This document shows positions 25,035 to 61,582 of a stretch of DNA of 64,000 nt, piece by piece (the first letter of the stretch is position 1; each line of letters opens with the position of its first letter). Origin of the DNA: an uncultured Anaerolineaceae bacterium. GTDB taxonomy: Bacteria; Chloroflexota; Limnocylindria; Limnocylindrales; CSP1-4. The notes under the pieces were generated by a model. It searched no databases. It saw only the letters and a list, made by a program, of their open reading frames with translations, and had not been told where the DNA came from. The position numbers were made by a program, and so were the translations under genes. Where the stretch lies: positions 28,702-92,701 of the forward strand of contig CAZVGO010000028.1 of assembly GCA_964626755.1 (NCBI GenBank), given 5' to 3'.

Positions 25035-25195
25035 TTGTCTGACAGTCAACAAATCGGCCCTCAACCGACCGCCCTGCCCCAGTTCCGGGCGTCGCCGTGA
25101 CTCCGAGTCAACGATTTGGCGGCTCATCGGTCGCTCAGCCGGCCTCCGAGGCCTCCCCTCCCCGCCAGAGGCCTGGTTTGTTGACTCAGAGACAA
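25035..25195. repeat. ~160-bp three-site inverted-repeat element, copy A
   Basis: TTGTCTGACAGTCAA-CAAATCGG (25035), GTGACTCCGAGTCAA (25097) and GGTTTG-TTGACTCAGAGACAA (25181). Confidence 0.85.
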
Positions 25196-25226
25196 CGGCG
25201 TGGCCCTGCCGCGAGCCCGAGGCGAC

Positions 25227-26492
25227 CTACGGGTACAGGCCTCGCATCGACGTGGCGTCGGCCACCCGCTGGACCGCCAGCAGGTATGCCGCCGTGCGCA
25301 TGTCGCACTCCTCGCGCTCGGCGATCGCCAGGGTCTCCGCGAAGGACCGGGTCATGATGCCGCGCAGCTTCTCATTGACGACCGCTTCGCTCCAGTGGTC
25401 CCGGTTGAGGTCCTGGACCCACTCGAAGTAGCTGACGGTCACGCCGCCGGCGTTGCACAGGATGTCCGGGATCATGAATACGCCCCGCCGGGCGAGCTCC
25501 ACGTCGGCCTCCGGGGTCGTGGGGCCGTTCGCCGCCTCGGCCAGGATCTTCGCCTTGATGTTGGCGGCGTTGCGGCTCGTGATCTGGTTCTCGAGGGCGG
25601 CCGGGATGAGGATCTCGCAGTCGACCTCGAGCAGCTCCATGTTCGAGACGTCCTTCGAGCCGGGGAGGCCCTGGACCGTGCCGTGCTCCTTCTTCCAGTT
25701 GATGATCCTCGCCACGTCGAGGCCGGCCGCGTTGTGGATCCCGCCGGTCGAGTCGGACACCGCGACGACCGTGGCCCCCTCGTCGGCGATCAGCCGGGCG
25801 GCGATCGAGCCGGCGTTGCCGAAGCCCTGGACCGCCACCCGCGCCTTCTTCAGGTCCATGCCCAGGTGGCGGACGGCCTCGATGATGCAGAAGACCGTGC
25901 CCCGTGCCGTCGCCTCGTTCCGGCCCTCGGAGCCGCCCAGGCTGATCGGCTTGCCGGTCACGACTCCGGGCACCGTGTAGCCTTGGTGCATCGAGTACGT
26001 GTCCATCATCCAGGCCATGACCTGGGCGTTCGTATTGACGTCCGGGGCCGGGATGTCCCGCTCGGGGCCGATGAGGACCTCGATCTCGGTCGTGAACCGG
26101 CGGGTCAGGGCCTCGAGCTCCTTGATCGAGAGCTTCTTCGGGTCGACGATCACCCCGCCCTTGCCGCCGCCGTACGGGATCCCAACGACCGCGCACTTCC
26201 AGGTCATCCACATCGCGAGGGCCTTGACCTCGTCGAGGCTGACGTCCTGGTGGTAGCGGATGCCGCCCTTCGCCGGGCCCCGGCCCAGGTTGTGTTGAAC
26301 CCGGTAGCCGGTGAAGACCTGGACGCTCCCGTCGTCCATCTTCACGGGGAAGTGGACGGTGAGCTCGCGGCGCGGCTGGCGGAGGACCCGCCGCAGGCCC
26401 GGGTCGAGGTTGAGCTTGCCGGCGGCAAGATCGAACTGCCGCTGCGCGATCTCCCACGGGTTGATGTGCGCCGCGACTTGCTCGGTCGTCAT
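25227..26492 (-). CDS. gdhA: Glu/Leu/Phe/Val dehydrogenase (glutamate dehydrogenase-like)
   Basis: GPAKGGIRYH, PYGGGKGG, DIPAPDVNT, VQGFGNAG and NAGGVTVSYFEW motifs. Confidence 0.93.
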   Translation of the reverse strand: MTTEQVAAHINPWEIAQRQFDLAAGKLNLDPGLRRVLRQPRRELTVHFPVKMDDGSVQVFTGYRVQHNLGRGPAKGGIRYHQDVSLDEVKALAMWMTWKCAVVGIPYGGGKGGVIVDPKKLSIKELEALTRRFTTEIEVLIGPERDIPAPDVNTNAQVMAWMMDTYSMHQGYTVPGVVTGKPISLGGSEGRNEATARGTVFCIIEAVRHLGMDLKKARVAVQGFGNAGSIAARLIADEGATVVAVSDSTGGIHNAAGLDVARIINWKKEHGTVQGLPGSKDVSNMELLEVDCEILIPAALENQITSRNAANIKAKILAEAANGPTTPEADVELARRGVFMIPDILCNAGGVTVSYFEWVQDLNRDHWSEAVVNEKLRGIMTRSFAETLAIAEREECDMRTAAYLLAVQRVADATSMRGLYP

Positions 26493-26660
26493 GACCTCGA
26501 GGACCTCCGTCTGTGGCGGCGTCCGGCCGCCTCGGTTTCGGGCGCGCTGGGCGCCGGGATTTGGACCGAGTATAGCCCCGGGAGAGGCCTCGGACGACTC
26601 CCCGATGGTCCCGTCGCGCAACCTCACCGCAACCGGACCGCAACTTTCGCGTGCGGCGGA

Positions 26661-27512
26661 CTACCGGGCGTAGAGGACGACGGCGCCGAGGCAGCTCGGC
26701 CCGATGTGCGGCCCGACCGAAGCCCCGACCGGCTGGACGGAGACCTGGCTCCGGTCGAGCCTCGAGCCGGCCCGGGCTACGACCTCGTCGCGGAACGTAT
26801 CGGCGTCCGCCGGCGGCGTGAAGAGGACCGCGAGCCGCTCGATCGGCCGCTGGACGAGGAGCTCGATCGTCCGCTCGCGGGCTTTGCCCCGCGTCCGGGG
26901 CTTGTCCGCCGTCTCCACGACCCCGTCCCGGATCGTGATGATCGGCTTGACCGAGAGGAGCGTCCCGATCGCCGCCCGGGCGCCGCTGATCCGGCCGCCC
27001 TTCTTGAGGTACTCGAGCGTGTCGAGCGCGACGTACAGGTCGAGGTCCTTCTTCCGGTCTTCGAGGACGCGGGCGATGTCGGCCGCCGAAGCACCACTCG
27101 CAGCCATCTCCGCGCCGATCTGGGCGAGGATCCCCTCCCCCATCGACGCGCTGCCCGAGTCGACGATGTGGACCTCCCGGTTCGGGAGCATCCCTTTCGC
27201 GATCTCGGCACTCTTTATCGTGGCCGACAGGCTCCCCGCGACGTGGATCGACACGATCGCCTCGGCCCCGTCCGCGAATGCCTTGTCGTAGACCGCCTTG
27301 AACTCGCCGGGCGCGGACGCGGCCGTGGTCGGGAACGGGGCGTCCGGCGCGGTCATCCGGCGCCAGAACTCGTCGGTCGAAAGGTCGACCCCCGCCTTGA
27401 AGGTCTGCTGCCCGAAGTTGACGATCAGCGGGACGACCGCGATGCCTGCCGCGGCGGCTGCTGACGGCGGCAGGTCCGACGCTGAATCGGTGACGATCGC
27501 GACGCGGCTCAC
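26661..27512 (-). CDS. degV: DegV family fatty-acid-binding protein
   Basis: VAIVTDSASDL, PTTAASAPG and YLKKGGRI motifs. Confidence 0.92.
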   Translation of the reverse strand: MSRVAIVTDSASDLPPSAAAAAGIAVVPLIVNFGQQTFKAGVDLSTDEFWRRMTAPDAPFPTTAASAPGEFKAVYDKAFADGAEAIVSIHVAGSLSATIKSAEIAKGMLPNREVHIVDSGSASMGEGILAQIGAEMAASGASAADIARVLEDRKKDLDLYVALDTLEYLKKGGRISGARAAIGTLLSVKPIITIRDGVVETADKPRTRGKARERTIELLVQRPIERLAVLFTPPADADTFRDEVVARAGSRLDRSQVSVQPVGASVGPHIGPSCLGAVVLYAR

Positions 27513-27581
27513 GTGGCTCCTCCTCCAACGCGCTGCCCACCCCCGGTTCGGGCGATCATACGGGGCTGATGCGAGGCCCCG

Positions 27582-28862: not shown

Positions 28863-28901
28863 ACTGAAAGCGTAGCGGGCCTGCCCGCCTAGAATGCGGC
28901 G

Positions 28902-30566: not shown

Positions 30567-30672
30567 CGGCAGGGCTGGCTATACTCCTCCGTGCCGGTGG
30601 CAGGCTGCGCTCACACGAGGCCGCCACCGGTCTCCATGCCGGCGAGGCGGGAGGGCGCAGGCGGAGGGCGGC

Positions 30673-30945: not shown

Positions 30946-30961
30946 GAGCGCGGGGCGCCGG

Positions 30962-33762: not shown

Positions 33763-35511
33763 GTGCGCCTCGTCGAGATCCGCCTGCTCGATGGCCCGAA
33801 CGTCTACCGGCTCGAGCCGGTGGTGAAGGTCGAGCTCGGCATCGGGCGGCGGCGAAGCTGGTACGGCAAGCGTATCCCGGCCCGCCACGCCCTCGTCGCG
33901 CTCGGGGCGACCGTCCCGGCCGGCGACTGGCCGGATGGCGTCGCCGCGGTCGTGGCCTGGATCCGCCGGCTTCGAGCGGACCACGGCGAGGGCACCGGCG
34001 GTGGCAGGGTCCACCGGTCGTCCGATCCCGGCCACTGGATCATCACCTGGCCGTGGACGGGCGCCGAGCGGGCACGAACGATCGCCGAGGCGGCCTTTGC
34101 GCTCGCGGAGCGGAACACCTCGCCGCTCCGCAAGGATGAGCTCACGCCCGGGCAGACGCGGGCCCTCGAGGGGTGGACGCGGCGGATCGAGGCCGCGGGC
34201 GCGACCCCGCCGTCCTGGATTCGCGACACCGATCGGCATGTCCCGATCGTCTCGATCAGCGGCACGAACGGCAAGAGCACGGTCACCCGCCTGATCACGC
34301 ACATCCTCCTGCTCGCCGGCCGGCACGTCGGAACGACGACCTCCGACGGTGTCCTCGTCGACGAGCGGATGGTCGACCCGGGCGACTGGACGGGGCCGGC
34401 GGGCGCCGCCCAGATCCTCGAGCGGAGCGACATCGACGTCGCGGTGCTCGAGACCGCGCGGGGCGGGATCGTCCTGCGCGGGGTCGGCTACGAGTCGAAC
34501 GACGCGAGCGTCCTGACGAACGTCTCGTCCGACCATCTCGATCTCCAGGGAATCCACACCCTGCCCGAGCTTGCCGAGGTGAAGTCGGTCATCAACCGGA
34601 TCACGAAGCCGTCCGGCTGGGTGATCCTCAACGGCGACGACCCGTTCGTCGCGGCGGTCGGGCGGCGGGTGCGGTCGAAGCTTGCCTACTTCTCGCTCGA
34701 CGGGAAAGCGTCGGTCGTCCGTCGCCACGTCGCGTCCGGCGGCCGCGCCTACCTCCTCGAGGACGGCGACATCGTCGAGGCCGAGGGCGAGCGGCGCTCG
34801 ACGATCATCGCCGCGGCGGATGTCCCGATCACGATCGCCGGGCTCGCCCGCCACAACGTCGCAAATGCGCTGGCCGCTGCCGGCGCGGCACGAGGGCTCG
34901 GGGCGACGCTTGCCCAGGTCCGCGATGGGCTCCGCGACTTCCGCCCGTCGTCGGAGCGCTCGCCGGGCCGGCTCAACCTGTTCCGGGTCGGCTCGAAGGT
35001 CGTGATCGTCGACTTCGCCCACAACGAGGCGGGCATTGGGGCCATCCTCGACGTGGCCGAGGGAATCGCGGCCGGCGGGGCCGGGCGGACGGCGCCGATC
35101 ACGGCGATCATCGGGACGGCGGGCGACCGGCCGGACGACACGCTGCGGGGCATCGGCCGGGTCGCCGGAAAGCGGGCCCAGCGTGTCGTGATCAAGGAGA
35201 CGCTCAAGTACCTCCGCGGCCGGACGCGGGAGTCGATGATCGGCGAGCTGCTGGCCGGAGTCCGAGCCGCGGGTCGCTCCACCTCCGACATCGCCATCTA
35301 CGAATCGGAGACGGAGGCACTCCGCGCGGAGGTGACCCTCAACGGCGCACCGGCCGGCGGGTCCGACGCGGGCCGGGTGATCGTCATCATGTGCCACGAG
35401 GAGCGCGAGGAGGTCTTCAAGCTCCTCGAGACGCTGGGCGCGCGGCCGGTCGATGTCGTCTCAGAGCTGACCGAGCTCATCCCGCGCCTCCAGGGCCGCC
35501 CGCGCGGCTAA
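33763..35511 (+). CDS. Cyanophycin synthetase-like protein with N domain and Mur-ligase domain but no ATP-grasp domain
   Basis: VEIRLLDGPNVY N-domain start, then ISGTNGKSTVTR, AVLETARGGI, TNVSSDHL, HNVANALAA, PGRLNL and VDFAHN, all collinear with the CphA C-terminal half. It is 582 aa long. Confidence 0.85.
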   Translation: MRLVEIRLLDGPNVYRLEPVVKVELGIGRRRSWYGKRIPARHALVALGATVPAGDWPDGVAAVVAWIRRLRADHGEGTGGGRVHRSSDPGHWIITWPWTGAERARTIAEAAFALAERNTSPLRKDELTPGQTRALEGWTRRIEAAGATPPSWIRDTDRHVPIVSISGTNGKSTVTRLITHILLLAGRHVGTTTSDGVLVDERMVDPGDWTGPAGAAQILERSDIDVAVLETARGGIVLRGVGYESNDASVLTNVSSDHLDLQGIHTLPELAEVKSVINRITKPSGWVILNGDDPFVAAVGRRVRSKLAYFSLDGKASVVRRHVASGGRAYLLEDGDIVEAEGERRSTIIAAADVPITIAGLARHNVANALAAAGAARGLGATLAQVRDGLRDFRPSSERSPGRLNLFRVGSKVVIVDFAHNEAGIGAILDVAEGIAAGGAGRTAPITAIIGTAGDRPDDTLRGIGRVAGKRAQRVVIKETLKYLRGRTRESMIGELLAGVRAAGRSTSDIAIYESETEALRAEVTLNGAPAGGSDAGRVIVIMCHEEREEVFKLLETLGARPVDVVSELTELIPRLQGRPRG

Positions 35512-36673: not shown

Positions 36674-39577
36674 CTACCCCTCCGGCGCCTCGAGCTCCCC
36701 CGGATCGGCAAATGCCGTCGCCCCGTGGGCGGCTCCGGCGGCGGCCATCGCCTCCCGGTAGACCGCGATCGCGTCGTCGACGCACATGACCACGAGATCG
36801 CCCGGCTTCGCCCGCCGGAGCGCCGTCCGGACGGCCGTGATCTCCTCGAGGACCTTCTCCGCCTTCGTCGTCCGTGCGCCGGCGTTGCCCCGCGCCGCCC
36901 GGACTCCTTCGACGACGTTCGTCGCGGAGACCCCCGGGGCGCGGCCGCGGAGGTTCTTGTCCTCGCGGACGATGATCTCGTCGAACGCCGCGGCGGCGAG
37001 CGCCCCGTACTCGCGCTGGTCGTCGTCGCGCCGGTCGCCCGGGATCCCGATCACGCCGATCGCCCGCCCATTGCCGGCCGAGCCGTTCGTCGCCGGCTTG
37101 ATCCGGCCGGCCGCCGTCTGTGGCTCGGCCATCATCCGCCGGACGAACTCCGCGAGCTGGCGCATCCCGTCGACGTTGTGGCAGTAGTCGATCACGACCC
37201 GAACCCCGCCCACGTCGACCAGGTTGAGCCGCCCGGGCGCCTGGAAGAACGAGGTCGTGAACGTCCGGAGGCCCTGCCGGATGTCGTGGAGATGGGCGCC
37301 CGCGGCCCAGGCGGCCGCAGCCGCGGCCAGGGCGTTCGCGACGTTCATCCGCGCCTTGCCACCGAACGTGGCCGGCGCTAGGTGGGTGTAGAGAACAGGC
37401 ATCTTGCGCGGGCCGTGCTTGAGGACGATCAGCTCCCCCTCCGGCGTGGCCTCGAGGCAGAACGCCGCGTTGCCCCGGCTCGTGTGGCCGTCGACCCGAT
37501 CGAACCCGTCCTCGCCCTTCTGCGTCGCCATGCTGAACAGGACGACTCGACCTGCACAGTGGCGGCCCATCCGGTAGACGTGCGGGTCGTCGGCGTTGAG
37601 CACGGCCGTGCCGGACCGCGGCACCGCCTCGACGACGACCGCCTTGACGTTCGCGAGCTGGCCGAGCGAATCGATCCCCCCGAGTCCGAGGTGATCGCCG
37701 GTGACATTCGTCACGACCGCGACGTCGTTCCGGTCGTAGCCGAGCCCCTCGCGCAGGATCCCGCCCCGGGCGACCTCGAACACCGCGGTGTCGACGGTCG
37801 GGTTCTGGAGAACCATCTGGGCCGACTTCGGGCCGGACATGTCGCCCCGCTTGATGAGCCGTCCGTCGACGACGATCCCGTCGGTCGACGTCATCCCGAC
37901 CCGCCTGCCCATGAGCTTGAGGATGTGGCTGATCATCCGGACCGTCGTCGTCTTGCCGTTCGTGCCGGTCACCGCCAGGATCGGGATTCGGGCCGCCGTT
38001 CCGGGCGGGAACAGCAGGTCGATCACCGGCCGGGCGACGTACTGCGGCTCGCCCTCGGTGGGATGGGTGTGCATCCGGAACCCGGGCGCGGCGTTGACCT
38101 CGACGATTCCGCCGCCCGTCTCGCGAACGGGTGAGGCGATGTCCGGTGCGATGAAGTCGATCCCCGCGACGTCGAGGCCGACGATCCGGGCGGCCGTCTC
38201 GGCGATCTCGACGTTGTCCGGGTGGGCCTCGATGGTCCGGTCGATCGAGGTGCCGCCGGTCGACATGTTGCCGGTGAGCGCGAGCTTGATCCGGATTCCC
38301 GCGGGGGGCACGTCGTCGAGCCCGAAGCCCTGGGCGCGGAGGAGCTCCTGGGCCGCCTCGTCCACCTTGATCCGGGTGAGGACCTTCTCGTGCCCGATCC
38401 CCCGGCGCGGATCGGCGTTCGCGATGTCGACGAGCTGGCGAACCGTGTGCTCGCCGTCGCCGGTCACGCTGGCCGGCACCCGCTCGGCCATCGCGGCGAG
38501 CTTGCCGCCGATGACCAGGCAGCGGTAGTCGTTGCCCGCGACGTATGTCTCGACGACCACATCGCCCGCCTGGCTCTGGGCGGCGGCGCCGGGGAATGCC
38601 TTGCGGACCGCCTCCTCCGAGCGGAGGTCGAGATGGACGCCCCGGCCGTGGTTGCCGTCGAGAGGCTTGACGACGCACGGGAAGCCAATTCGCTTGGCGG
38701 CGGCGACCGCTCCCTCCTCCGATGAAACGACCGCCGACTTCGGGACCGGCAGGCCGGCCGAATCGAGGAGCCGATTCGTCAGGCCCTTGTCCGACGCGAT
38801 GTCGACCCCGATCGCGGACGTTCGCGAGGTCATCGTCGCGCGGAGCCGCTGCTGGTGGACGCCCTGCCCCAGCTGGACGAGCGAGTGGCGGTCGAGGCGG
38901 ATGTACGGGATGTCGCGGCTGACCGCCTCGTCGATGATCGCCTGGGTCGACGGCCCGAACGCCTGGCGCTCGGCGAGGAGGATGAGCCGCTCGAGCTCGG
39001 CGATGAGGTCGATGGTGTAGGCGGGATCGTTCGGCGCGACGAGGTGGTTGATGAGCGCGACCGCCATCCGGCCGGCCTCGATCCCGACGTTCTCCTCGCG
39101 GTACTCGTAGATGACGTTGTACTGGCCGTGGTCACCGGTCGAGCGGGTCTTGCCGTGGCGGACGTTCGTGCCGGCGAGGTTCTGGAGCTCGAGCGCGATG
39201 TGCTCGGCGATGTGCCCGGCCCACGTGCCCTCCTTGAGCCGGCTGATGAAGCCGCCCCGCCGGCCGAGCGAGCAGGCGTGGTCCTCGAGCGACGGCAGGA
39301 GCTCGACGAGTGCCTCGGTGAAGCCCGGGATGAGGTTCGAGGGGAACTCCTCGAGCACCCCGAGGTCGACGAGCATCCGGATGACCTGCTCGCGCGCCCA
39401 GTAGTTCGGGCCCCTGAGGCTCCGCGCCTCGATGATCCGGAGGGTCGGCTCAGGGCGGACGCTCTTCGGGCGCCGTTCCGGGCCGCTCCATCGGGCGTCC
39501 GCGTTCGAGAGGGCCGCAGCAGGGGTGGCGGGCGCGGCCTTCCGCTTCGACCGGGGCGGAGGCACGGTCTGGGCCAC
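36674..39577 (-). CDS. cphA: Cyanophycin synthetase (CphA1 type)
   Basis: N domain with HAC...GHIAEHIALELQ, ATP-grasp (FGPSTQAI, VVKPLDGNHGRGV, EVNAAPG) and Mur domain (TGTNGKTTT, EVARGGIL, DYCHN). Confidence 0.96.
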   Translation of the reverse strand: MAQTVPPPRSKRKAAPATPAAALSNADARWSGPERRPKSVRPEPTLRIIEARSLRGPNYWAREQVIRMLVDLGVLEEFPSNLIPGFTEALVELLPSLEDHACSLGRRGGFISRLKEGTWAGHIAEHIALELQNLAGTNVRHGKTRSTGDHGQYNVIYEYREENVGIEAGRMAVALINHLVAPNDPAYTIDLIAELERLILLAERQAFGPSTQAIIDEAVSRDIPYIRLDRHSLVQLGQGVHQQRLRATMTSRTSAIGVDIASDKGLTNRLLDSAGLPVPKSAVVSSEEGAVAAAKRIGFPCVVKPLDGNHGRGVHLDLRSEEAVRKAFPGAAAQSQAGDVVVETYVAGNDYRCLVIGGKLAAMAERVPASVTGDGEHTVRQLVDIANADPRRGIGHEKVLTRIKVDEAAQELLRAQGFGLDDVPPAGIRIKLALTGNMSTGGTSIDRTIEAHPDNVEIAETAARIVGLDVAGIDFIAPDIASPVRETGGGIVEVNAAPGFRMHTHPTEGEPQYVARPVIDLLFPPGTAARIPILAVTGTNGKTTTVRMISHILKLMGRRVGMTSTDGIVVDGRLIKRGDMSGPKSAQMVLQNPTVDTAVFEVARGGILREGLGYDRNDVAVVTNVTGDHLGLGGIDSLGQLANVKAVVVEAVPRSGTAVLNADDPHVYRMGRHCAGRVVLFSMATQKGEDGFDRVDGHTSRGNAAFCLEATPEGELIVLKHGPRKMPVLYTHLAPATFGGKARMNVANALAAAAAAWAAGAHLHDIRQGLRTFTTSFFQAPGRLNLVDVGGVRVVIDYCHNVDGMRQLAEFVRRMMAEPQTAAGRIKPATNGSAGNGRAIGVIGIPGDRRDDDQREYGALAAAAFDEIIVREDKNLRGRAPGVSATNVVEGVRAARGNAGARTTKAEKVLEEITAVRTALRRAKPGDLVVMCVDDAIAVYREAMAAAGAAHGATAFADPGELEAPEG

Positions 39578-39661
39578 GATTCACTCCTCGGCAGGGCGCA
39601 GTGGCGGGAGTGTACGTCGATTTGTGGCGCTCGCGGTCACCCGCCACCGGGTGCTCTTCGC

Positions 39662-39820
39662 GTGACTGGCAGTCAACAAACCGGCGGGAAGGTTCGCTGT
39701 CCGCCTCCAGGATGGCCCGCGGGGCCACTTTTCGAGCCACTTGGTGTCTCTGAGTCACGGATCAGCGCCCAGAGGACGCGTCTTCGGCCGTCAGGTCCCG
39801 ATTTGTTGACTGTGAGACAC
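39662..39820. repeat. ~160-bp three-site inverted-repeat element, copy B
   Basis: GTGACTGGCAGTCAA-CAAACCGG (39662), GTGTCTCTGAGTCAC (39744) and CGATTTG-TTGACTGTGAGACAC (39806). Confidence 0.85.
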
Positions 39821-41999: not shown

Positions 42000-42043
42000 G
42001 CGAGCACCTCCGGGGGCAGAAGAACGCCCCTGGCTGTCGATCA

Positions 42044-42110
42044 GTCAGGAGCCATCAGCCCAAGGAGGGCGGTTCAGGCGCGGAGCTGCGCCTCGGCGGA
42101 CGCCATCGCC
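42044..42110 (-). promoter_or_regulatory. Fluoride riboswitch (crcB motif)
   Basis: GGCGATGGCGTCCGCC...TGAACCGCCC..GGGCTGATGGCTCCTGA matches the consensus GGCGAUGGNGUUCGCC..AACCGC..GCUGAUGRCUCCU. It lies just downstream of a promoter and upstream of an antiporter. Confidence 0.88.
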
Positions 42111-42119
42111 GGCGTTGCG

Positions 42120-43149: not shown

Positions 43150-43152
43150 GCG

Positions 43153-44520
43153 TCAGGCGGGGGCGTCCCGCGCAGCCCGCGGCGGCTCTACCACCGGACG
43201 GAAGAGGATGAGCGCGACGCCGTAGAGCGCGACACCGGTGAGGAACGCGACGCGCGGACCAACGTCCAGCGAGCCTGTCGACGTGTTCACGGCGTCGATG
43301 ATCAGGCCGCCGACCGCGACGGACAGCGGGGTCGAGGCACCGGTCGCGACGTTCGAAAGGCCCATGTACCGCCCCGCGTCGGCCTTCGGGATGATGTCGG
43401 TCATCAGGGCCCAGTCGACCGACAGGAACATTCCGGCAGACCCCCCAAAGAGCGCGGCACCGACGAGGGCGAAGTCGACCGTCGGGGCGAGGGCCACGAT
43501 CGTCACCCCGACCGCCCCGATCGCGCAGGCGGCGTAGATCACCGGTTTTCGGCCGATTCGGTCGGAGGCGCGCGCGGCCGGGATGATCGCAATGACATTG
43601 GCGACGATGACCACGACCAGCATCGCGAGGTAGAGCTGGTTGGCGGCGGCCTGGCCGAGGCGGTGGGTGAACTCGAGGTAGACCAGCGCGAGATTGACGA
43701 GGATGCCGCCGCCCATGAGGAAGAACAGGCGCGAAGCGACGAGGTAGACGTACGAGCGCTCCTTGAGGATGTCGGTCGCCCACGCCTCGCGGGCGATCCT
43801 CCCCCAGGACCTCCCGCCGCGCGGCTTGGGTGGCTGCCCCTCGCCCACGTTGCGGACCACGCTGACCATCGTCACGAGCTCGACGACGGCGATCGCGATC
43901 AGCGCGAGCGGCAGGTAGTCGGCCGGCGGGCGGCCTTCCAGCGTGGCCGCGGCGCGCTCGGCGGCCGTGAGGCTGGCCGCGAGCGAGGCAATTCCAAAGC
44001 CGATGACGTTGCCGAGGATCTGCATGAGGCCGACCATCGCGCTGGCCAGGCCGACCTGCCGGCTCGGCACGAGGTCCGGCACATACCCCTGGAATGGGCC
44101 GCGCGCGATGTTCGTGCTGAACGCCAGAAGGACGACGAAGGCCGCAATTGCGAGGAGCGTGTTCGAGTAGGCGATCCCGAGGAGGAAAACGACGTCGAGC
44201 AGTGAGCCGATGACGATCCACGGCTTGCGCCGGCCCCAGCGACTCACCGTGTAGTCGCTGATCGCCCCGACCGTCGGCTGGATGATGATCCCGACGATCG
44301 CCCCACCCACGCCGACGAGGAAGAGCGTTCGACCCACTTCGAGCGCGGGAACCCAGCCCTCGTACAGGATCCGGTTCTGGACGACGAGGCCGACGGCGGC
44401 GTCGATCGCGGTCAGGCCCAGCCAGTAGGCGGAGATCCGGGCGAGGTGGGCGAAGGGCAGCGCCGCGGTGGGTCTGCCGCGGGCATCCGTGCCGTCGAGG
44501 ACGGCCGCTTGGGTTGTCAG
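43153..44520 (-). CDS. MFS transporter (apparent CTG start)
   Basis: GAISDYTVSRWGRRKPWI and ASDRIGRKPV motifs. The N-terminus collinear with paralog 45095..46441 needs CTG at 44520, which has a GAGGAG SD. Confidence 0.88.
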   Translation of the reverse strand: MTTQAAVLDGTDARGRPTAALPFAHLARISAYWLGLTAIDAAVGLVVQNRILYEGWVPALEVGRTLFLVGVGGAIVGIIIQPTVGAISDYTVSRWGRRKPWIVIGSLLDVVFLLGIAYSNTLLAIAAFVVLLAFSTNIARGPFQGYVPDLVPSRQVGLASAMVGLMQILGNVIGFGIASLAASLTAAERAAATLEGRPPADYLPLALIAIAVVELVTMVSVVRNVGEGQPPKPRGGRSWGRIAREAWATDILKERSYVYLVASRLFFLMGGGILVNLALVYLEFTHRLGQAAANQLYLAMLVVVIVANVIAIIPAARASDRIGRKPVIYAACAIGAVGVTIVALAPTVDFALVGAALFGGSAGMFLSVDWALMTDIIPKADAGRYMGLSNVATGASTPLSVAVGGLIIDAVNTSTGSLDVGPRVAFLTGVALYGVALILFRPVVEPPRAARDAPA

Positions 44521-45094: not shown

Positions 45095-46441
45095 TCAGGC
45101 AGGGAGGGGAACGATGACCGCCTGCTCGCCCAGGGGCGGGTCGTCGCGTCGACGTTCGTTGACCGGTCGCAGGAGAAGCGCTCCGATGACGAGGAGCGCA
45201 ACACCGAGAACGAGAGCCGACCGCGGGCCGATGCCAAGTTCCTGCTTGCCACCGATGAAGTCCATGAGGGGCCCCCCGAAGCCGGTGGCCAACACGCCCG
45301 CGGACGCGGTCGCAACGTTGCTCAACCCCATGAACCGGCCCGACGAGGCCTTCGGGATGATGTCGGTCATGAGGGCCCAATCGACGGCCAGGAAGATGCC
45401 CGCCGACACACCGTAGATTGCGACGCCGAGGTAGGCGATCGGGAGCGTCGGCGCGGCGGCCACGATCCCAATCCCTACGGCTCCGATTGCACAGCTCGCG
45501 TAGATCACCTTCTTCCGGCCGAACCTGTCGGACACCCGCGCCGCCGGAACGACCGACACGACGACACACAGGGCGATGATGGCGGAGTTGATGACAATCG
45601 CGCCCGCCGACTCCTCCTGCGAAAGGCCTTGGGAGCGCTTGAAGTAGAAGATCCCGAGATTCACGAGGATGGAGCCACCCGTCAGGATCGCGAGCCGGGA
45701 GCCGACGAGCCACAGGAAGCTTCGCTCGCGGAAGATGTCGGTGCCCCATGCTTCCCGAGCGATCGACAGCCAGGAGCGGCCCGCACGGGGTTTCGGTGTT
45801 CGGCCTTCTCGGACGCCCACGAAGACGGCGACCATCGTCGCGAGCTCGAAAACGCCGAGTGCGATCAGCCCGAGCGCGAACTGGTTCGTCGCCACAGCGA
45901 TCGCCGCGATGGCGGCTCCTGCGACATTACCGAGGATCTGGAAGAGCCCGACCAGGGCGCTCGCGAGGCCGACCTGCTGAGCTGGGACGAGGTCGGGAAC
46001 ATAGCCCTGAAACGGTCCTTGTGCGAAGTTCGAACTGAACTGCAGCAGGCTGATGAACGCCGCAATCGCGAGCAGGTCGTTGGACAGCGCGATCCCGACG
46101 AGGAAGACGACGTCGAGGACCGAGCCGATGAGGATGTACGGCTTGCGGCGTCCCCAGCGGCTGGTCGTGTAGTCGCTGATCGAGCCTATCGTCGGCTGGA
46201 CGATCATCGCGATGATCGCGCCGCCGATGGTCATCAGAAAAAGTGCCCCTCCCGCCTCTCCGGGACCGACCAGGCCGGTGAATTCCAGCCGGCCGGTGAG
46301 GATCACATTCAGGCCGATGAAGATCGAGGACAGGCCCAGCCAGTAGGCGGACATCGCGAGCAGCTGCCGGCGAGGCAGGAGCGTCGTCGGCCGGCCCTGG
46401 GCGTCCGTGACGGGTTCGGAACCCGGTGCGCTGGACTGCAT
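45095..46441 (-). CDS. MFS transporter
   Basis: GSISDYTTSRWGRRKPYI, GPFQGYVPDLVP and VSDRFGRKKV motifs. Confidence 0.92.
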   Translation of the reverse strand: MQSSAPGSEPVTDAQGRPTTLLPRRQLLAMSAYWLGLSSIFIGLNVILTGRLEFTGLVGPGEAGGALFLMTIGGAIIAMIVQPTIGSISDYTTSRWGRRKPYILIGSVLDVVFLVGIALSNDLLAIAAFISLLQFSSNFAQGPFQGYVPDLVPAQQVGLASALVGLFQILGNVAGAAIAAIAVATNQFALGLIALGVFELATMVAVFVGVREGRTPKPRAGRSWLSIAREAWGTDIFRERSFLWLVGSRLAILTGGSILVNLGIFYFKRSQGLSQEESAGAIVINSAIIALCVVVSVVPAARVSDRFGRKKVIYASCAIGAVGIGIVAAAPTLPIAYLGVAIYGVSAGIFLAVDWALMTDIIPKASSGRFMGLSNVATASAGVLATGFGGPLMDFIGGKQELGIGPRSALVLGVALLVIGALLLRPVNERRRDDPPLGEQAVIVPLPA

Positions 46442-53719: not shown

Positions 53720-53911
53720 GGGATCAGCGAGTATCCCACGGAAACCTGACAGAAGGCGTCCGGAATACGGCGCTAACGGCCCCGGGGCCGACCGTTGGAG
53801 CCGGGCGGCCGCCGAAGGTACGCCTTTCGCCGCGTGACACGAAGGCTAGACTTCGCGCGTCTTGTGCCTGCAGGCACCAGAGAGGGCTCTTCTGATACAG
53901 GCGAACTGGCG

Positions 53912-55735
53912 ATGACCGCGACCTTCCTCGAGCGTGCGCGCCGGGCGACCCCGCTCGGCGGTTATACGCGGCCCACGGCGCGCGTCGTGGCGGCGGCCGC
54001 CGCGCTGGTGCTGGTCGCTGCCGCCGTCCTCGCGGCAGCGGCCTTCGACCGGGCCTATGCAGGACGGGTCCTGCCCGGGGTGTCGGTGGCCGGCATCGAC
54101 CTGGGCGGTGCGTCGCCGGAAGAAGCACGCACGCGCCTCGCGGGCCTTCCGGTCGGGCCGGCCGGTCTCGTCCTCGTGGTCGGCTTGAGGAGCGAAACGG
54201 TCCCCGCCGAGGCGCTGGGCCGTCGGATCGCCATCGATGCGGCCGTGGAGGCCGCGATGGCCTCGGGTCGGGGTCGTGGCTTCCTCGGCGACATCGCCCC
54301 ACGACTCGGTCTGGTCCGCGACGGCCGATCGCTGCCGCTCGAGGTCACGGTCGACGAACCGACCCTCGCGGCGTGGATCGCGGCCGCGGCTGGCGAGGCC
54401 TACCGCGAGCCGGTCGACGCGAAGATCATCCCGGCTGACGGCCAGTGGGAGATGAGGAAAGCCGTCCGCGGGGCCGCGCTCGACGAGGCAGCGGCTTCCG
54501 CGCTCATCCGGAGCGCGCTTCTCGGCACCCAGGGCGGAACACCCCGGATCGTCCTGCCGGTCGGCTCGGTCGACCCGGACGTCGCGGACGCTGCCGTCGC
54601 GAGCGCCATCCAGGCAGCGTCACGGATGGTCGCCGACGTCACGGTGACGCTCGACGACAAGAGCTGGACGATTCCTTCGAAGAGCCTTCGCCCCGCGATC
54701 GTCTTCGTCTCGAGCAACGGGCGACCGGTGCCGGTGATGTACGGGTCGCCCATCGAGGCGGCTGTCCGAAAGCTGGCCTCGACGGTGAAGGTCGCCCCAC
54801 GGCAGACGCTCATCCTCAAGACGAAGTCCGGGGCGACCTTCGGCTACGTGCCCGGCGCCGCAGGTCGCACTCTCGACGTCCCGGGGACGGCGCGGGCCGT
54901 GACGGCGCTTGCCGCCGAGCGGCGGGATGACCCGTCGGATCCGCTTGTCGAGGTCGACGCAGTGACGATCGACGTGCAGCCGAAGATCAGCAACGCACAG
55001 GCTGCCGCCGCCGGCCCGAAGATGACCCGGATCTCCGGCTGGACGGTCCGCTATACCTCGAGCGAGCGCAACGGCTTCGGCAACAACATCGTGATCCCGG
55101 CTCGCCTGATCAACGGAACGGTCGTGAGGCCGGGCGAGGTGTTCGACTTCTGGCGCGCCGTCGGGCCCGTGACCTTCTCGCGCGGCTTCCGGATGGGCGG
55201 CATCATCCAGGGCGGCCGGACCAACCCGACAGGCGCTATCGCCGGTGGCATCTGCTCGGCGTCGACGACGCTGTTCAACGCCGCGGTTCGTGGCGGCTTC
55301 CAGATCGTCGAGCGCTCCCCGCACTTCTACTACATCTCCCGCTACCCGCTGGGCCTCGACGCGACCGTCTCGAAGTCGGGCGGCAGGAGCACCCAGAACA
55401 TGCGGTTCCGCAACGACACGAACGTGCCGATCTACATCCGCGGCATCGGGGGCGGGGGCTCCGTGCGGTTCGAGATCTACTCCCTACCCACCGGGCGGAA
55501 GGTGACGTTCAGCAAGGCGAGCGTCGCGAATGTCCGTCGGGCGGTCGACCGGGCCGTCCGGACCGACGCCCTGCGGGCTGGCACGAGGCGGCGCGACGAG
55601 ACGCCCGCCAACGGAATGGACGTCGCCGTCTCCCGAACGGTCCGCAACGCGAGCGGTGCCGTCATCCGCCGGGACAGGTTCGTCAGCCACTATGGCCGGG
55701 TCGACGGCATCGTCCTGATCGGAACGCGCCGCTAG
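53912..55735 (+). CDS. VanW family protein with PG-binding-4 repeats
   Basis: N-terminal TM, GRVLPGVSVAG, VRPGEVFDFW, GGICSASTTLFNA, ERSPH, GLDATV and RFRNDT motifs. Confidence 0.9.
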   Translation: MTATFLERARRATPLGGYTRPTARVVAAAAALVLVAAAVLAAAAFDRAYAGRVLPGVSVAGIDLGGASPEEARTRLAGLPVGPAGLVLVVGLRSETVPAEALGRRIAIDAAVEAAMASGRGRGFLGDIAPRLGLVRDGRSLPLEVTVDEPTLAAWIAAAAGEAYREPVDAKIIPADGQWEMRKAVRGAALDEAAASALIRSALLGTQGGTPRIVLPVGSVDPDVADAAVASAIQAASRMVADVTVTLDDKSWTIPSKSLRPAIVFVSSNGRPVPVMYGSPIEAAVRKLASTVKVAPRQTLILKTKSGATFGYVPGAAGRTLDVPGTARAVTALAAERRDDPSDPLVEVDAVTIDVQPKISNAQAAAAGPKMTRISGWTVRYTSSERNGFGNNIVIPARLINGTVVRPGEVFDFWRAVGPVTFSRGFRMGGIIQGGRTNPTGAIAGGICSASTTLFNAAVRGGFQIVERSPHFYYISRYPLGLDATVSKSGGRSTQNMRFRNDTNVPIYIRGIGGGGSVRFEIYSLPTGRKVTFSKASVANVRRAVDRAVRTDALRAGTRRRDETPANGMDVAVSRTVRNASGAVIRRDRFVSHYGRVDGIVLIGTRR

Positions 55736-55790: not shown

Positions 55791-55950
55791 TTGTCTGCCA
55801 GTCAACAAATCGGGCAGGTGTCGGGCCGGCCGCCCCTCGATCGGTCGATTTGCTGTTTCGGGGACACCACCCGGCCGGCATTGCGGCATCTCGTCCGCGT
55901 AAGCCTCGGCGAATAGCGCGCAAAGGCCGTTGTTGTTGACTGTCAGTCAT
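55791..55950. repeat. ~160-bp three-site inverted-repeat element, copy C (overlaps the ATG of the XRE gene)
   Basis: TTGTCTGCCAGTCAA-CAAATCGG (55791), CGATTTG-CTGTTTCGGGGACAC (55853) and TTG-TTGACTGTCAGTCAT (55936). Confidence 0.85.
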
Positions 55951-56712
55951 GGGCCAGCGCACGAAGATCCAACTCGCCGCGGACCAACGAACGCGGGAGG
56001 CGACCCGCGCAATCGGTGCCGAGCTCCGCCGCAGCCGCGAGGACCAAGGCATCTCCCAACGCGCCGTCGCAGCGTCGGCCGGCATCGATCCAGGCCACCT
56101 TTCGCGAATCGAGGCGGGCGCGGTGGAGGCCAGTCTCGGATCCCTGGCGCGTGCGTCGGCGGCTCTCGGGGGTGAACTCAGCGTGCGGTTCTATCCGGGC
56201 ACCGGGCCGCGGCTGCGCGACCACATCCAGGCCGCGATCGTCGAGGCCCTGCTCCGCGAGCTGCATCCGCGCTGGAAGCGGTTCGTCGAGGTGCCCGTCT
56301 ACCGGCCCGCGAGGGGCGTGATCGACCTCGTACTGCACGACCCGACCGCCCCGGTCGTCGTTGCCGTGGAGGTCCAGTCCGAGCTGCGACGGCTCGAGCA
56401 GCTCATTCGCTGGTCGAACCAGAAGCGCGACGCCCTGCCGTCGGCCGACATCTGGCAATTCGCCGCGGCCGCGAACTCCCCGCCCGTCTCGGCCCTGCTC
56501 GTGTCGTGCGATCCACGCGCGCGACGAGGACAGTCGCCAACGACCACCCGGAACAGCTGCGCTCCCTCTACCCGGCGCACGCGGGAGGCATATATGCGGC
56601 GCTGACGACCGATGCGCCGTGGCCCGGCGCGGGCCTGGTGTGGGCAGTCGTCGACGGCGGCCGGGCTCGGTTGATGCCGCGGCCGCCTCGCGGGGTCGGC
56701 TTCGGGCGTTAG
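55949..56712 (+). pseudogene. XRE-family HTH fused to a PD-(D/E)xK-like domain, split by a 1-nt frameshift near 56504
   Basis: LRRSREDQGISQRAVAASAGIDPGHLSRIEAG (HTH), then RGVIDLVLHD..VVAVEVQSEL. A coherent C-terminus (VRSTRATRTVANDHPEQLRSLYP..WPGAGLVWAVV) continues in the 56506..56712 frame. Confidence 0.75.
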
Positions 56713-56768: not shown

Positions 56769-56875
56769 GCCTGCCTCCGTCGAGGTCGATCGCGCGCGCC
56801 ACGACGCCGGAGAGTCCCGGGAGACCTATGAGGAGGCCGAGCCAACGCCCGGCTAGCAGGTCGACGCGCCACCGG

Positions 56876-58585: not shown

Positions 58586-58605
58586 GGTGGCAGGATAGGC
58601 CCGCC

Positions 58606-59010
58606 ATGGAGCGCGTCTACATGACGCCGCTGCTCGACAAGCTCGGGGTGAAGCCAAGGGCGCGCGTCGCGATCCTCAACGTCCCCGACGTGGACTTCCG
58701 CGCGCTCCTCCCCGAACGGACGGCCGACGTCACCGACGGCTGGCCGGCGCCCAAGACGGACCTCGTCTTCCTCGGTGCGGATTCGATCGACGAGCTGCTC
58801 CGGATCGGCCCGCTCCAGGAGGCGCTCGTGCCGAACGGCGCGATCTGGGTCGTGTCCCGCAAGGGCAGGGCCGCGACCCTCCGGGACGTCGACGTCATCG
58901 AGGCCGCGAAGGCGGTCGGGCTCGTCGACAACAAGGTCGTGTCGTTCTCGCCGACCCACACCGCGCTTCGGCTCGTGATCCCCGTGGCCAGGCGCGCGGA
59001 GCGCGGCTGA
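58606..59010 (+). CDS. DUF3052-like small protein
   Basis: LLDKLGVKP, LVPNGAIWVV..KG and GLVDNKV pattern. Confidence 0.7.
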   Translation: MERVYMTPLLDKLGVKPRARVAILNVPDVDFRALLPERTADVTDGWPAPKTDLVFLGADSIDELLRIGPLQEALVPNGAIWVVSRKGRAATLRDVDVIEAAKAVGLVDNKVVSFSPTHTALRLVIPVARRAERG

Positions 59011-59034
59011 GAGCGACCGAGGGCCAGCGTTCTC

Positions 59035-59186
59035 CCCAACTCTCACCCCCGGACCGCAAAGGGACTTCCCGACCGCATTCCACGTCACGCGCGACCATCT
59101 CGCGCTTACGCCGAGCGTGGGTTGGAAGGCGCAGGGGCCGGGACCGTGGCTCGGGTCCGTCTAAGAGTCCGAGGGTGCAAGTTGGG
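59035..59186. repeat. Second repeat family: ~150-bp element with imperfect inverted ends and a middle copy
   Basis: CCCAACTCTCACCCCGGAC (59035) versus the reverse complement of 59167-59186, CCCAACTTGCACCCTCGGAC. Middle copy CCGAGCGTGGGTTGG at 59111. Confidence 0.65.
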
Positions 59187-59252
59187 CAAGTTGGCCCGTC
59201 CCGCGGGCTCGGCGGCGGCTAGCGCTCCCTTCTGCGGAGTACCATCCGGGCC

Positions 59253-59417
59253 ATGCAGGATCTGGCCGTCGTCCTCATCGTCATCCTCGTGCTCGTGCTC
59301 CTCTGGCGCGGCCCAAAGACGATCCCGAAGCTCGGCGAGGCGCTGGGGCGCGGCGTGCGAGAGGCGAAACGCGAGGCGAACGAGCTCCGATCCGACAAGG
59401 ACGAGCCGGCGCCCTAG
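59253..59417 (+). CDS. tatA: Twin-arginine translocase TatA/E subunit
   Basis: Not in ORF track. MQDLAVVLIVILVLVLLWRGPKTIPKLGEALGRGVREAKREANE: one TM, a G-P-K hinge and an amphipathic helix. Confidence 0.88.
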   Translation: MQDLAVVLIVILVLVLLWRGPKTIPKLGEALGRGVREAKREANELRSDKDEPAP

Positions 59418-59437
59418 CCGGCCCACCCAGCCGCGAC

Positions 59438-60058
59438 GTGCCATCTCGCACGAATGGCGACGCGCCACCGGACCTGACCGAGCTCACCGCCCGCCCGGAA
59501 CCCGGCCCCCACCGGACGACGATCCTGGTCGACGGGAAGAAGATCACGACGCTCGCGGACATCCCGCCGCTCCGGAACCGGCTGCTGTTCGTGGGGCTCA
59601 ACCCCTCGCCGGTGAGCGTTAAAGCCGGCCACTACCACCAGGGCCGCCTCGGGCAGACGTTCTGGCGCCGGCTGATGACCGCCCGAATCCTTCCGAAGGA
59701 CACGCCGATCGAAACGGCCGACGACGCACTCCTCGCGGCAGGCCACGGGATTACCGACCTGCTCAAGCGCCCGACCGCGCGCGACACGGCCACCCCGGCC
59801 GAGCTGACCGCCGGCGTCGGGCCGCTGTGGCAGAAGGTCGCGGTCTGGCGGCCGGCCGCGATCGTGTTCATCTACAAGCGGGCGGCCGAGATCGCTGCCG
59901 GTCGATCGCTCACCGAGCGCTGGGGCCAGCTCGAGGGCGTCGCGCTGGCAGCCCGGCCGTGCTTTCTCATGCCAGGCGCATACGCCCCGCGCGCGGAGGT
60001 CGACGCCGGCCTGAACTTCATCCGCAACCTCGGCGCGGCACTGCCGGCGGACCAATGA
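59438..60058 (+). CDS. mug: Mismatch-specific uracil-DNA glycosylase family protein
   Basis: LFVGLNPS, GHYHQG..FWRRL, GITDLLKRPT and EL..G motifs. Confidence 0.82.
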   Translation: MPSRTNGDAPPDLTELTARPEPGPHRTTILVDGKKITTLADIPPLRNRLLFVGLNPSPVSVKAGHYHQGRLGQTFWRRLMTARILPKDTPIETADDALLAAGHGITDLLKRPTARDTATPAELTAGVGPLWQKVAVWRPAAIVFIYKRAAEIAAGRSLTERWGQLEGVALAARPCFLMPGAYAPRAEVDAGLNFIRNLGAALPADQ

Positions 60059-60110
60059 GGCGAGTCGGGGTCATTTCGCTCCAGGTGGAGCTGATGGGGG
60101 ACGGGAAGGG

Positions 60111-61379
60111 CTAACGCGGGCGCGCCGCCTCGATCGCCGCGGTCGCGTCGCGGGGCGGGTCGCCGTGACCCGGCAGCAGGCGCGGTGGCTTGAGCGCAGC
60201 GAGCCGATCGAGCGACGCGAGCAACGCATCGACGTCCGGCGGACCGAGGATCGAGCGGGAGGGTCCCGGCCCAACGAGATCGCCGCAGAGGACAAATCCG
60301 TCGCCGGCGAGCGCGATGTGGTCGGCCCGGTGGCCCGGCGTCGACATCGCGGCGAGCTTCATGTCGCCGAGGGGCATGAGCTGAGCATCCGCGAGCTCGA
60401 CGACGTCGTGCGGCAGGTCGCGGCCCGCTCCGGGACCCGCGAAGATCGGAACGCGGATCCGGCCGGCGAGCGCCTCGGCACCCGCGGCGTGATCGGGATC
60501 GGCATGGGTGAGGACGACGCCGACGATCGTCGCTTCGCGCGCGCGCGCCAGCTCGAGCAGCCTCTCCGCGGCGACGTCGGACGGGTCGCCCGGATCCACC
60601 GCGACCACGTCCCGCCGACCAACGAGGTATGCGTTGACCGACTGGCCCTCGACTCCGCCCGCGCTCGGAAGCACGACGCGAACGACGCCCGGCTCTTCTT
60701 CGAGGACGCGAATCCCCTCCGCCCGCCGCGGTCCCAGGCGCTCGCGAATCTGGTCGAACAATCGAACGTGTTCGAGCTGCTGAAGGGTCGCGCTCGTCGG
60801 CACCCACAAGCCGATCGTGCCGGCGGCCCGCTCGTCGAGTGCCGCTCGCGGCGTGATCCAGCGATGAGCGATCACCTCGTCGCCCACGAACGAAGGGAGC
60901 GCTGAGGCCGGCAGCTCGGCGGCGAAGAAGCGGACGTCGAATCGCCTTTCCACGAACGGCGGCGTCACCCAGCGCGAGAGAGGCGCGAGGAGGTCCGTAC
61001 GGAGATCGACGTCGAGCGCCTCGGCGACGTCCGCGATCGTTGCAGAACCACCGAGCAACCCCGCACGCGCCTCCGCGACCCGCTCGGCATTCGGCCACGC
61101 CCCGCGCGCGTCCGCCAGCAGGACCCCGGCTTCCTCGAACAGCTCTCGGACGCCCGCGGCCCGAGCCGCCGCTTCCTCGCTGTCCGACGCCGGCCTCGAT
61201 CGCGCGGCAACGCGCGGATCACTGTCCCCGGGATCGACGGCTCCACCGGGAAAGACGTGCATGTCGGCCGCGAATGCCATCGTCGCGGGCCGCTGAGTGA
61301 GCAACACCTCGAGGCCATCGCGCCCGGGACGAATCAGCACGACCGTCGCGGCCGGCCTGGGGATCTCCGGAGTGTTCAC
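60111..61379 (-). CDS. NUDIX hydrolase fused to an MBL-fold hydrolase
   Basis: RPAATVVL, VFPGGAVDPGD..RELFEEAG Nudix box, then THADPDH, TPGHRADH, GDL and PGHG motifs. Confidence 0.9.
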   Translation of the reverse strand: MNTPEIPRPAATVVLIRPGRDGLEVLLTQRPATMAFAADMHVFPGGAVDPGDSDPRVAARSRPASDSEEAAARAAGVRELFEEAGVLLADARGAWPNAERVAEARAGLLGGSATIADVAEALDVDLRTDLLAPLSRWVTPPFVERRFDVRFFAAELPASALPSFVGDEVIAHRWITPRAALDERAAGTIGLWVPTSATLQQLEHVRLFDQIRERLGPRRAEGIRVLEEEPGVVRVVLPSAGGVEGQSVNAYLVGRRDVVAVDPGDPSDVAAERLLELARAREATIVGVVLTHADPDHAAGAEALAGRIRVPIFAGPGAGRDLPHDVVELADAQLMPLGDMKLAAMSTPGHRADHIALAGDGFVLCGDLVGPGPSRSILGPPDVDALLASLDRLAALKPPRLLPGHGDPPRDATAAIEAARPR

Positions 61380-61422
61380 GCCGACGATCGTAGCCGCCCT
61401 CGTCGTCACGACGCCCAACCTG

Positions 61423-61582
61423 CTGACTCCCAGACAGCAAATCGTGCCCTTGGCCGCGGTTTGGGGCAGGACGATCTCGCTTCAGGCCCTCTCCGTTGAC
61501 CAGGAGACATGGAAACGTCCGATAGCTGGTGCCGCGACCGGGATCGGCGCGCTTCGATGCCGATTTGTTGACTGGCAGTCAG
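61423..61582. repeat. ~160-bp three-site inverted-repeat element, copy D
   Basis: CTGACTCCCAGACAG-CAAATCG (61423), TTGACCAGGAGACAT (61496) and CGATTTG-TTGACTGGCAGTCAG (61568). Confidence 0.85.

Follow-up and report, generated by a model that had tools for sequence, protein, structure and literature searches.

In a 64,000-nucleotide stretch of DNA from an uncultured Anaerolineaceae bacterium of the class Limnocylindria (contig CAZVGO010000028.1; hereafter, the window), four short elements, E1 to E4 (Table 1), carry palindromic sites that are strongly over-represented, conserved in situ and spaced by whole turns of the DNA helix, and that are linked to a gene for an XRE-family protein, with whose helix-turn-helix (HTH) type the site sequence co-varies. 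From comparison of related loci, we consider it reasonably likely that the elements are phased operator arrays for this XRE protein, which has a possibly endonuclease-like domain, and that they form a dispersed family. Each element would consist of three predicted binding sites for a dimeric HTH protein and, the sites being 6, 7 or 8 helical turns apart, the bound dimers would lie on one face of the DNA and could form a single cooperative complex, looped or wrapped. As binder, the protein encoded directly downstream of E3 would be the most likely candidate. The ancestral array is proposed to be the operator region of the XRE gene itself, a region that in several relatives is common to this gene and the divergently oriented lhr helicase gene. 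In the lineage of the window, copies of the array would have been dispersed into unrelated intergenic regions, where purifying selection would maintain the sites in helical phase and leave the spacers free, and copy number would have been altered through tandem duplication and deletion.

The elements had been described in a sequence-only reading of the window as having two outer cores, usually with an inward-pointing tail, and a third, more degenerate core inside. Every number in that description was confirmed, and the spacings between sites were reproduced exactly. The core TGWCTNNNAGWCA (TGWCT-N3-AGWCA) has 10 exact matches in 64 kb, as compared to 0.01 expected from shuffled sequences, and all 10 lie inside E1–E4; in E3 and E4, the inner site is a weak one (TGTTTCGGGGACA and TGACCAGGAGACA, respectively). 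Allowing up to two mismatches, the tail motif AGTCAACAAATCG was found seven times (0.24 expected), in each case at an element end. Alignment of the eight ends defined a 22-bp inverted terminal sequence, TGWCTSNCAGTCAACAAATCGG, which is present in all four elements and beyond which the aligned ends show no conservation. The full site is a 17-bp palindrome, GTTGACTG-N-CAGTCAAC, and the outer sites bear an inward-facing AAATCGG tail. When a position weight matrix built from the eight ends was used to scan the 64-kb window, no site in addition to those of E1–E4 was detected above background (0–3 matches per shuffle).

Between the sites, the four elements have nothing recognizable in common: their interiors cannot be aligned with each other, non-orthologous interiors reaching only the background identity of the aligner (0.51–0.57), and a generic repeat finder failed to recover the family, the shared part being just 22 bp. 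No direct repeat abutting any of the eight ends was found in a search for target-site duplications (TSDs). All four elements lie in intergenic gaps, as judged from genes called by third-position G+C content (the window has about 70% G+C), and the neighboring genes, which are gdh, cphB/cphA and genes for VanW-domain, XRE-family, MBL/NUDIX and S8 peptidase proteins, are mutually unrelated. A promoter and terminator scan around E3 returned nothing.

To follow the elements through related genomes, syntenic contigs were obtained through cphA and XRE gene homologues; related loci are referred to below by number. E1 has an orthologue in L043 (2349–2507; spacings 84/62) with the same right flank. E2 is present in L021 (72/83; cphA 92% identical) and L020 (135 bp in total; cphA 90% identical) and absent from L022 (cphA 96% identical), which is set apart from the window by an indel of 203 bp that takes in E2 and is bounded only by TGA. 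E3 has orthologues in L053 (146 bp in total), L054 (a 59-bp duplication, then 83/73) and L033 (62/62), while E4 has orthologues in L053 and L054, spanning 145 bp in the latter; the L057 lineage, which is more distant, has an empty E4 site. Additional elements occur in L043, in L053 (4858–5003) and in L054 (17108–17254), the last of these between convergent S8 and acetyltransferase genes that are separated by 45 bp in the window. In agreement with the search at the eight ends, these empty-site comparisons revealed no consistent duplication.

In seven orthologous pairs, the 22-bp ends are identical at 270 of 308 positions (88%), whereas the interiors of the same pairs are 56% identical, which does not exceed the background given above for unrelated interiors from the same aligner; fourfold-degenerate sites of cphA are 69–74% identical. 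Furthermore, some deviations from the consensus are specific to a locus and common to its orthologues, such as AGACA(G/C)C at the left end of E4 and GTTGTTG at the right end of E3, which argues for descent of the ends in place, without homogenization between copies. On these comparisons, the sites are evidently under purifying selection within otherwise free DNA, and the earlier suggestion that selection acts on the sequence and geometry of the sites rather than on the element as a whole holds.

The spacing of the sites is the second property on which the comparison of loci bears. Adjacent sites of the motif found in E1–E4 (hereafter, type A) are separated, center to center, by 59–62, 71–73 or 82–84 bp only. 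For 22 conservatively chosen spacings, the best period is 10.25–10.5 bp (about 10.4 bp) with a phase of about zero (Rayleigh R = 0.93 at 10.25–10.75 bp, p ~6e-9), which supports the helical spacing proposed in the sequence-only reading. Between orthologues, spacings change by whole turns: E2, at 62/82 in the window, has 72/83 in L021 and a total of 135 bp in L020; E3, at 62/83 in the window, has 62/62 in L033 and, following the fresh 59-bp duplication, 83/73 in L054. The phasing was replicated in arrays with other motifs at five further loci (the L054 paralogue, L065, L067, L068 and L069; R = 0.92, p ~6e-6 at 10.4 bp), with L057 and L064 left out of this test. Since the sites are under selection and helically spaced, a protein-bound looped or wrapped structure, as had been suggested, is the natural reading. 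Repression loops shorter than 0.4 persistence length are known to form in vivo and to be limited by twist (PMC3001091).

Periodicity of 10.4 bp at zero phase is characteristic of duplex DNA carrying proteins along one face, and bears directly on whether the elements might instead act as RNA or single-stranded DNA structures, that is, as a terminator or stabilizer hairpin, a small RNA or an attC-like folded recombination site. Although the two ends can pair into a 10–14-bp stem, and three elements lie between co-directional genes and would thus be transcribed, folding gave this end stem only, with unexceptional z-scores (−2.2, −0.7, −1.7 and +0.2), and the W positions often break the complementarity (TGTCT...AGTCA). 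At the elements, no Rfam match was obtained, either when the whole window was searched at the gathering threshold or at E ≤ 1 around E4; moreover, some arrays lie between convergent genes, and there is no integrase or cassette context. We therefore regard such structures as very improbable.

What the spacing and conservation do not name is the protein. The gene directly downstream of E3, whose ATG is overlapped by the right-end core of the element, has homologues of about 250 amino acids that combine an HTH_3/HTH_31 domain with a conserved C-terminal domain (C-domain) of about 170 residues without a family assignment. A palindrome array is found just upstream in all nine orthologous or paralogous gene copies examined (seven genomes), even where there is no other array within 15–20 kb; the copies were those of the window, L053 and L054 (main copy and paralogue in each), L057, L064, L065, L067, L068 and L069. 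The palindromes differ between these copies. HTH type A (helix AGID(R/P)GHLSRIE; window, both L053 copies and L054 main) is accompanied by TGACT-N3-AGTCA. Type B (ISRxHLCxIE) is accompanied by GTTCRCC-N3-GGTGAAC at the L054 paralogue (spacings 93/62) and by the same palindrome type, irregularly spaced (50, 56, 48), at L057 main; type E (VGRTHLWGIE; L067) has a palindrome of the same type as B (73/63), and the general form for both is GTTCAC-N5-GTGAAC. Type C is accompanied by TGGCT-N3-AGCCA in L064 (helix IDHGYLSQVE; only two outer sites scored, 168 bp apart), GTTGACC-N3-GGTCAAC in L069 (INHGHLSLIE; 62/62/63/62) and GCTGACC-N3-GGTCAGC in L068 (IDDGFLSLIE; 51/63/73), and type D (ISQGTLSQIE; L065) by GATTGGTC/GACCAATC (five sites at 61 bp).

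Two mosaic pairs separate the contributions of the two domains. Between the window and L057, the main orthologues have 85% identity in the C-domain but 45% in the HTH domain; for the paralogues of L053 and L054, the values are 75% and 42%, respectively. In both pairs, the upstream sites track the HTH type. As far as these genes can be compared, the palindrome sequence follows the HTH type and not the phylogeny of the C-domain. Because the motif co-varies with the HTH domain, and because arrays with other motifs obey the same helical rule, we name the XRE protein as the probable binder. That the arrays might be bound by a different protein, such as a nucleoid-associated or architectural one, with the XRE gene merely one of its targets, seems improbable for the same reasons: conservation and phasing demand some protein without naming one, arrays do occur in convergent intergenic regions and the XRE gene of the window is frameshifted, but, in orthologues as well as paralogues, the motif changes with the HTH domain encoded next to it, independently of the C-domain tree, and the array is upstream of the XRE gene in every lineage examined, whether or not there is another one nearby.

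The XRE family comprises about 550 clusters, of which the named ones are from Limnocylindrales, and the gene keeps a syntenic position throughout the class, among lhr, VanW, HDAC, TatA and UDG genes. When the protein was sought on plasmids and phages by tblastn, only the HTH domain was matched, or nothing. The closest solved structures to the HTH domain are ClgR and the controller proteins C.BclI and C.AhdI. The C-domain has no match in Pfam (E ≤ 10), NCBIfam, PADLOC or PDB sequences. In an AlphaFold model of the monomer (predicted local distance difference test score of 89), its topology is alpha-beta-beta-beta-alpha-beta, and residues D91, E114, D126, E141, S144 and K159 of the protein are invariant; judging from the model, it may have a restriction-endonuclease-like fold resembling that of PD-(D/E)xK nucleases. 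A Foldseek search with the C-domain alone returned non-significant matches to nuclease folds (Bax1, McrC, NucS/EndoMS and 3ijm; best E-value 0.5), and one with the full model returned HTH proteins only. A second XRE copy lies between lhr and VanW in some relatives (L053 4966–5796; L054 5029–5748), and none is present in the window. The HTH domain of this second copy has been exchanged, being of type A in L053 and of type B in L054, while the C-domain is orthologous between both.

Scans with the exact pattern, using one genome per species, returned 19 loci, and those of metagenomes and viral sequences 30 loci and one locus, respectively. Among the 19, the only real ones are from Candidatus Limnocylindrales or Chloroflexota metagenome-assembled genomes with about 70% G+C, the rest being single chance matches; five of the 30 metagenomic loci are real, and the viral locus is a chance match. 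Over all scans there were thus about 10 true matches, each with about 70% G+C and Limnocylindrales-like where named, and most of the chance matches were in low-G+C genomes. No type-A site was found in up to 20 kb of the distant lineage L057–L062, and a solo site in L013 was not informative. By these scans, the type-A element family is confined to a narrow lineage. Other type-A arrays have spacings of 73/73 (L023) and 61/83 (L019) or, with four sites, 71/72/72 (L014).

Several loci show that the number of units changes by tandem duplication and deletion, the amplifications of whole units in L010 and L065 being recent. These are the five tandem 71-bp type-A units of L010 (4856–5165), the 59-bp duplication of L054, the 289-bp doublet of L043 (two adjacent elements, 83/62 and 84/62, with 144 bp between them) and the 61-bp type-D units of L065. 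In L065, five or more units lie upstream of the XRE gene (1–300) and three at a second locus 10 kb off (10560–10710); the latter are 70–79% identical to the former, spacers included, which indicates that whole units were copied as DNA. Taken together, the differences in presence or absence, the tandem duplications and these whole-unit copies in a sister lineage argue that arrays spread as DNA, and any copying event of type-A arrays evidently predates the saturation of the spacers.

Such spread raises the alternative that the elements are old non-autonomous transposons, similar to miniature inverted-repeat transposable elements (MITEs) or REPINs, in which a transposase would bind the ends and the subterminal site, and the XRE gene would be linked to the elements by coincidence. 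The TG...CA inverted 22-bp ends, the length of about 160 bp, the strictly intergenic location, the variable presence among close relatives (E2 as compared to L022, and the additional elements of L043, L053 and L054) and the copied 61-bp units of L065 would all fit. However, no two copies are similar in their interiors, which argues against recent transposition; the sole clean empty site differs by 203 bp and not by the element; and neither a TSD, a recent copy nor, in about 15 loci, a transposase was found. An autonomous partner combining the same ends with a transposase was likewise not found in the window, among the 19 genomic, 30 metagenomic and one viral pattern matches, or in the fetched loci. 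Moreover, selection on whole elements does not predict ends conserved in place well above the neutral level, spacings shift in whole turns, and lineages without dispersed copies have one array of the same architecture, with another motif, upstream of the XRE gene. We consider this alternative unlikely. The sequence-only reading had left open a REPIN- or MITE-like unit or a multi-operator module; the latter is now much better supported, given the array upstream of every XRE orthologue and the co-variation of motif and HTH domain, and the former, despite the lack of TSDs, of a transposase and of copies resembling one another, might still describe how the arrays spread.

Several points weigh against operator arrays for the XRE protein. 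The XRE gene of the window has a frame shift near 56503–56527: residues 1–193 are in one frame (55949–56527) and residues 185–253 in another (56503–56709), so that the gene caller reports a 218-residue product with an unrelated tail. This may be a real frameshift or an assembly error; if real, the genome would be without an intact main copy although its sites are intact. Some spacings in L057 (50, 56 and 48 bp) fit the helical rule poorly, and the co-variation covers about seven HTH variants and was judged by eye. Finally, dispersed arrays differ in presence among close relatives, their distance to neighboring promoters is not conserved, and at least two lie between convergent genes (L054 17108–17254 and L019). 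The convergent contexts and unconserved promoter distances make it unlikely that the dispersed arrays are ordinary operators of their neighbors, forming a classical regulon. They could serve in titration of the protein, in local regulation, in chromosome bridging or as a substrate of the C-domain; the role of these arrays, like binding, cooperativity and the mode of spread, is something we infer from the comparison of loci.

With the C-domain in mind, a bolder version can be formulated, which we put forward as tentative and rather doubtful: the XRE protein would be an enzyme, domesticated and passed on vertically, whose cleavage at or beside the phased array cognate to it would carry copies of the array to new intergenic loci. 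By analogy, this may amount to a partnership like that of REPINs and RAYTs, but built on an HTH domain and a PD-(D/E)xK nuclease instead of an HUH transposase, in which recognition helix and repeat may co-evolve rapidly and three in-phase sites may be required, as in multi-site restriction enzymes. Should the C-domain turn out to have nuclease activity and to move the arrays, the XRE protein would add a second case, independent in mechanism, of an enzyme that is retained by the host and has a repeat population of its own. Even if the protein is a mere regulator, a portable 145-bp three-operator module repeated over the chromosome would be unusual. In either case, the arrays appear to offer a clean natural case of selection on DNA geometry, in which spacers of about 50 bp are fully randomized while their lengths are locked to 6, 7 and 8 turns; they suggest a testable function for an uncharacterized family of about 550 members in Limnocylindria, an abundant uncultured soil class; and they point to a DNA-binding domain and an operator array that are swapped together between paralogues.

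Two conserved stretches adjoin the elements. The cphA leader next to E2 (CCGCGAGCGCCACAAATCGACGTACACTCCCGCCACTGCGCC..GCCGAGGAGTGAATCGTG), which contains a TACACT hexamer resembling a −10 box, is kept in all four relatives, that lacking E2 among them. Beside E4, a stretch of about 110 bp preceding the S8 peptidase gene (TAGCCCGAAAGTACCAATCCCCCACCCGACCGGCTGGTGCC...GGCGTAGCGTGGGCGCCTTCGAAC) is almost invariant even in the distant L057 lineage, with counterparts at L054 13860–13990 and L057 15540–15660, while the adjacent intergenic DNA is randomized; this stretch, which could represent a promoter region or a leader RNA, has no match in Rfam at E ≤ 1. Elsewhere in the window, a fluoride riboswitch and a tRNA gene were detected, as well as two similar segments of about 1.2 kb, which are probably tandem paralogous genes, and a 158-nucleotide inverted repeat, which probably reflects paralogous Mur-ligase or ATP-grasp coding sequence.

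Table 1. Features of the 64-kb window (positions from the first nucleotide of the window; spacings are between site centers)
Feature	Position	Strand	Ends and inner site	Site centers (spacings, bp)	Description
E1	25035–25195	.	left end 25036–25057; inner site 25098–25110; right end 25173–25194	25042/25104/25188 (62 + 84)	three-site array between gdh (25227–26627, minus) and a gene of ~200 aa (minus)
E2	39662–39820	.	ends 39663–39684 and 39798–39819; inner site 39745–39757	39669/39751/39813 (82 + 62)	three-site array between cphB stop (39838) and cphA start (39577), both minus
E3	55791–55950	.	ends 55792–55813 and 55928–55949; weak inner site 55854–55866	55798/55860/55943 (62 + 83)	three-site array between VanW-domain gene (53795–55735, plus) and XRE gene
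E4	61423–61582	.	ends 61424–61445 and 61560–61581; weak inner site 61497–61509	61430/61503/61575 (73 + 72)	array upstream of MBL/NUDIX gene (60111–61418, minus) and of conserved S8 peptidase leader (plus)
XRE gene	55949–56709	+			candidate binding protein gene; XRE-family HTH_3/HTH_31, type A (AGIDPGHLSRIEAG), and conserved C-terminal domain of ~170 aa
cphA leader	39578–39645	minus			conserved stretch next to E2
S8 upstream stretch	~61600–61720				~110 bp, almost invariant
Fluoride riboswitch	42039–42119	minus			RF01734, 47.8 bits
tRNA gene	1595–1679	minus			
Similar segments	43294–44494 and 45260–46412				~1.2 kb each, 70–78% identical, direct orientation, about 1.9 kb apart
Inverted repeat	34241–34398 and 37829–37986				158 nucleotides, 71% identity, linking cphA with a gene ~3.4 kb off

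Various known kinds of site were considered for the elements and dropped. CRISPR-like arrays and attC sites were rejected: the outer repeats are inverted, the flanks are made up of syntenic housekeeping genes, and neither integrase nor cas genes are present in the loci; a CRISPR-like array is, in addition, at odds with the three spacing classes. The half-site spacing is wrong for res sites of serine resolvases, and a resemblance to Tn5-like or IS903-like ends and single sites of the parS, matS or Noc type were also set aside. A possible 14-bp repeat in L021 was discounted as a TSD, as it is about 40 bp outside the ends.

The sequence-only reading did not recognize the motif from any described family, which needs qualification: the type-A core TGACT-N3-AGTCA contains the very GACT-N3-AGTC half that gives the C-box of PvuII-type controller-protein operators its symmetry (PMC2175313). 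The element is not part of a restriction–modification system. Controller proteins of the PvuII, AhdI and Esp1396I type are XRE-fold HTH dimers with operators upstream of their own gene, as is proposed here, where an array abuts its own HTH gene at E3. However, C-boxes consist of two adjacent dimer sites 4 bp apart, whereas the arrays have three to five sites that are 59–93 bp apart and never adjacent. Restriction–modification systems have adjacent methyltransferase and endonuclease genes, the latter a separate gene downstream of the controller gene, while here the possibly endonuclease-like domain is in the same polypeptide as the HTH domain, and the neighbors in all loci are lhr, VanW, HDAC, TatA and UDG, with no methyltransferase. 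The XRE gene also differs in being a syntenic core gene of the class with arrays dispersed through the chromosome.

With MITEs such as Correia/NEMIS and ERIC, the elements share a length of 100–160 bp, terminal inverted repeats, an intergenic location and insertion polymorphism between strains; MITE copies, however, are alike over their whole length and have TSDs, whereas three sites are all that is shared here, with no TSD. In REPIN–RAYT systems, a single-copy, vertically inherited gene stands beside its cognate repeats, and paralogues have differing repeat types (PMC3116915; bioRxiv 10.1101/2021.07.10.451892). As in REP/BIME sequences, short inverted palindrome pairs with a less conserved spacer are extragenic and sometimes form tandem clusters, and, as with RAYTs, a vertically inherited single-copy gene has cognate scattered palindromes of paralogue-specific types. 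In contrast to the Y1 HUH transposase of RAYTs, the protein here is an HTH protein with a domain lacking a Pfam match, and no Y1_Tnp is present in any locus; furthermore, there is no interior similarity, no hairpin signal was detected (the ends can pair, with folding z-scores from −2.2 to +0.2), the three sites are phased on duplex DNA, and arrays are seen only upstream of the gene and not on both sides. The architecture also resembles looped regulatory modules such as lac O1/O2/O3, gal OE/OI, deo and lambda OR/OL, in which several palindromic operators are bound by one oligomeric, autoregulated repressor and function depends on integral-turn spacing, a spacing that the arrays share (R = 0.93). 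Whereas those modules are single loci tied to one promoter, the arrays would constitute a portable unit of about 145 bp that is found at many unrelated loci, including promoterless ones.

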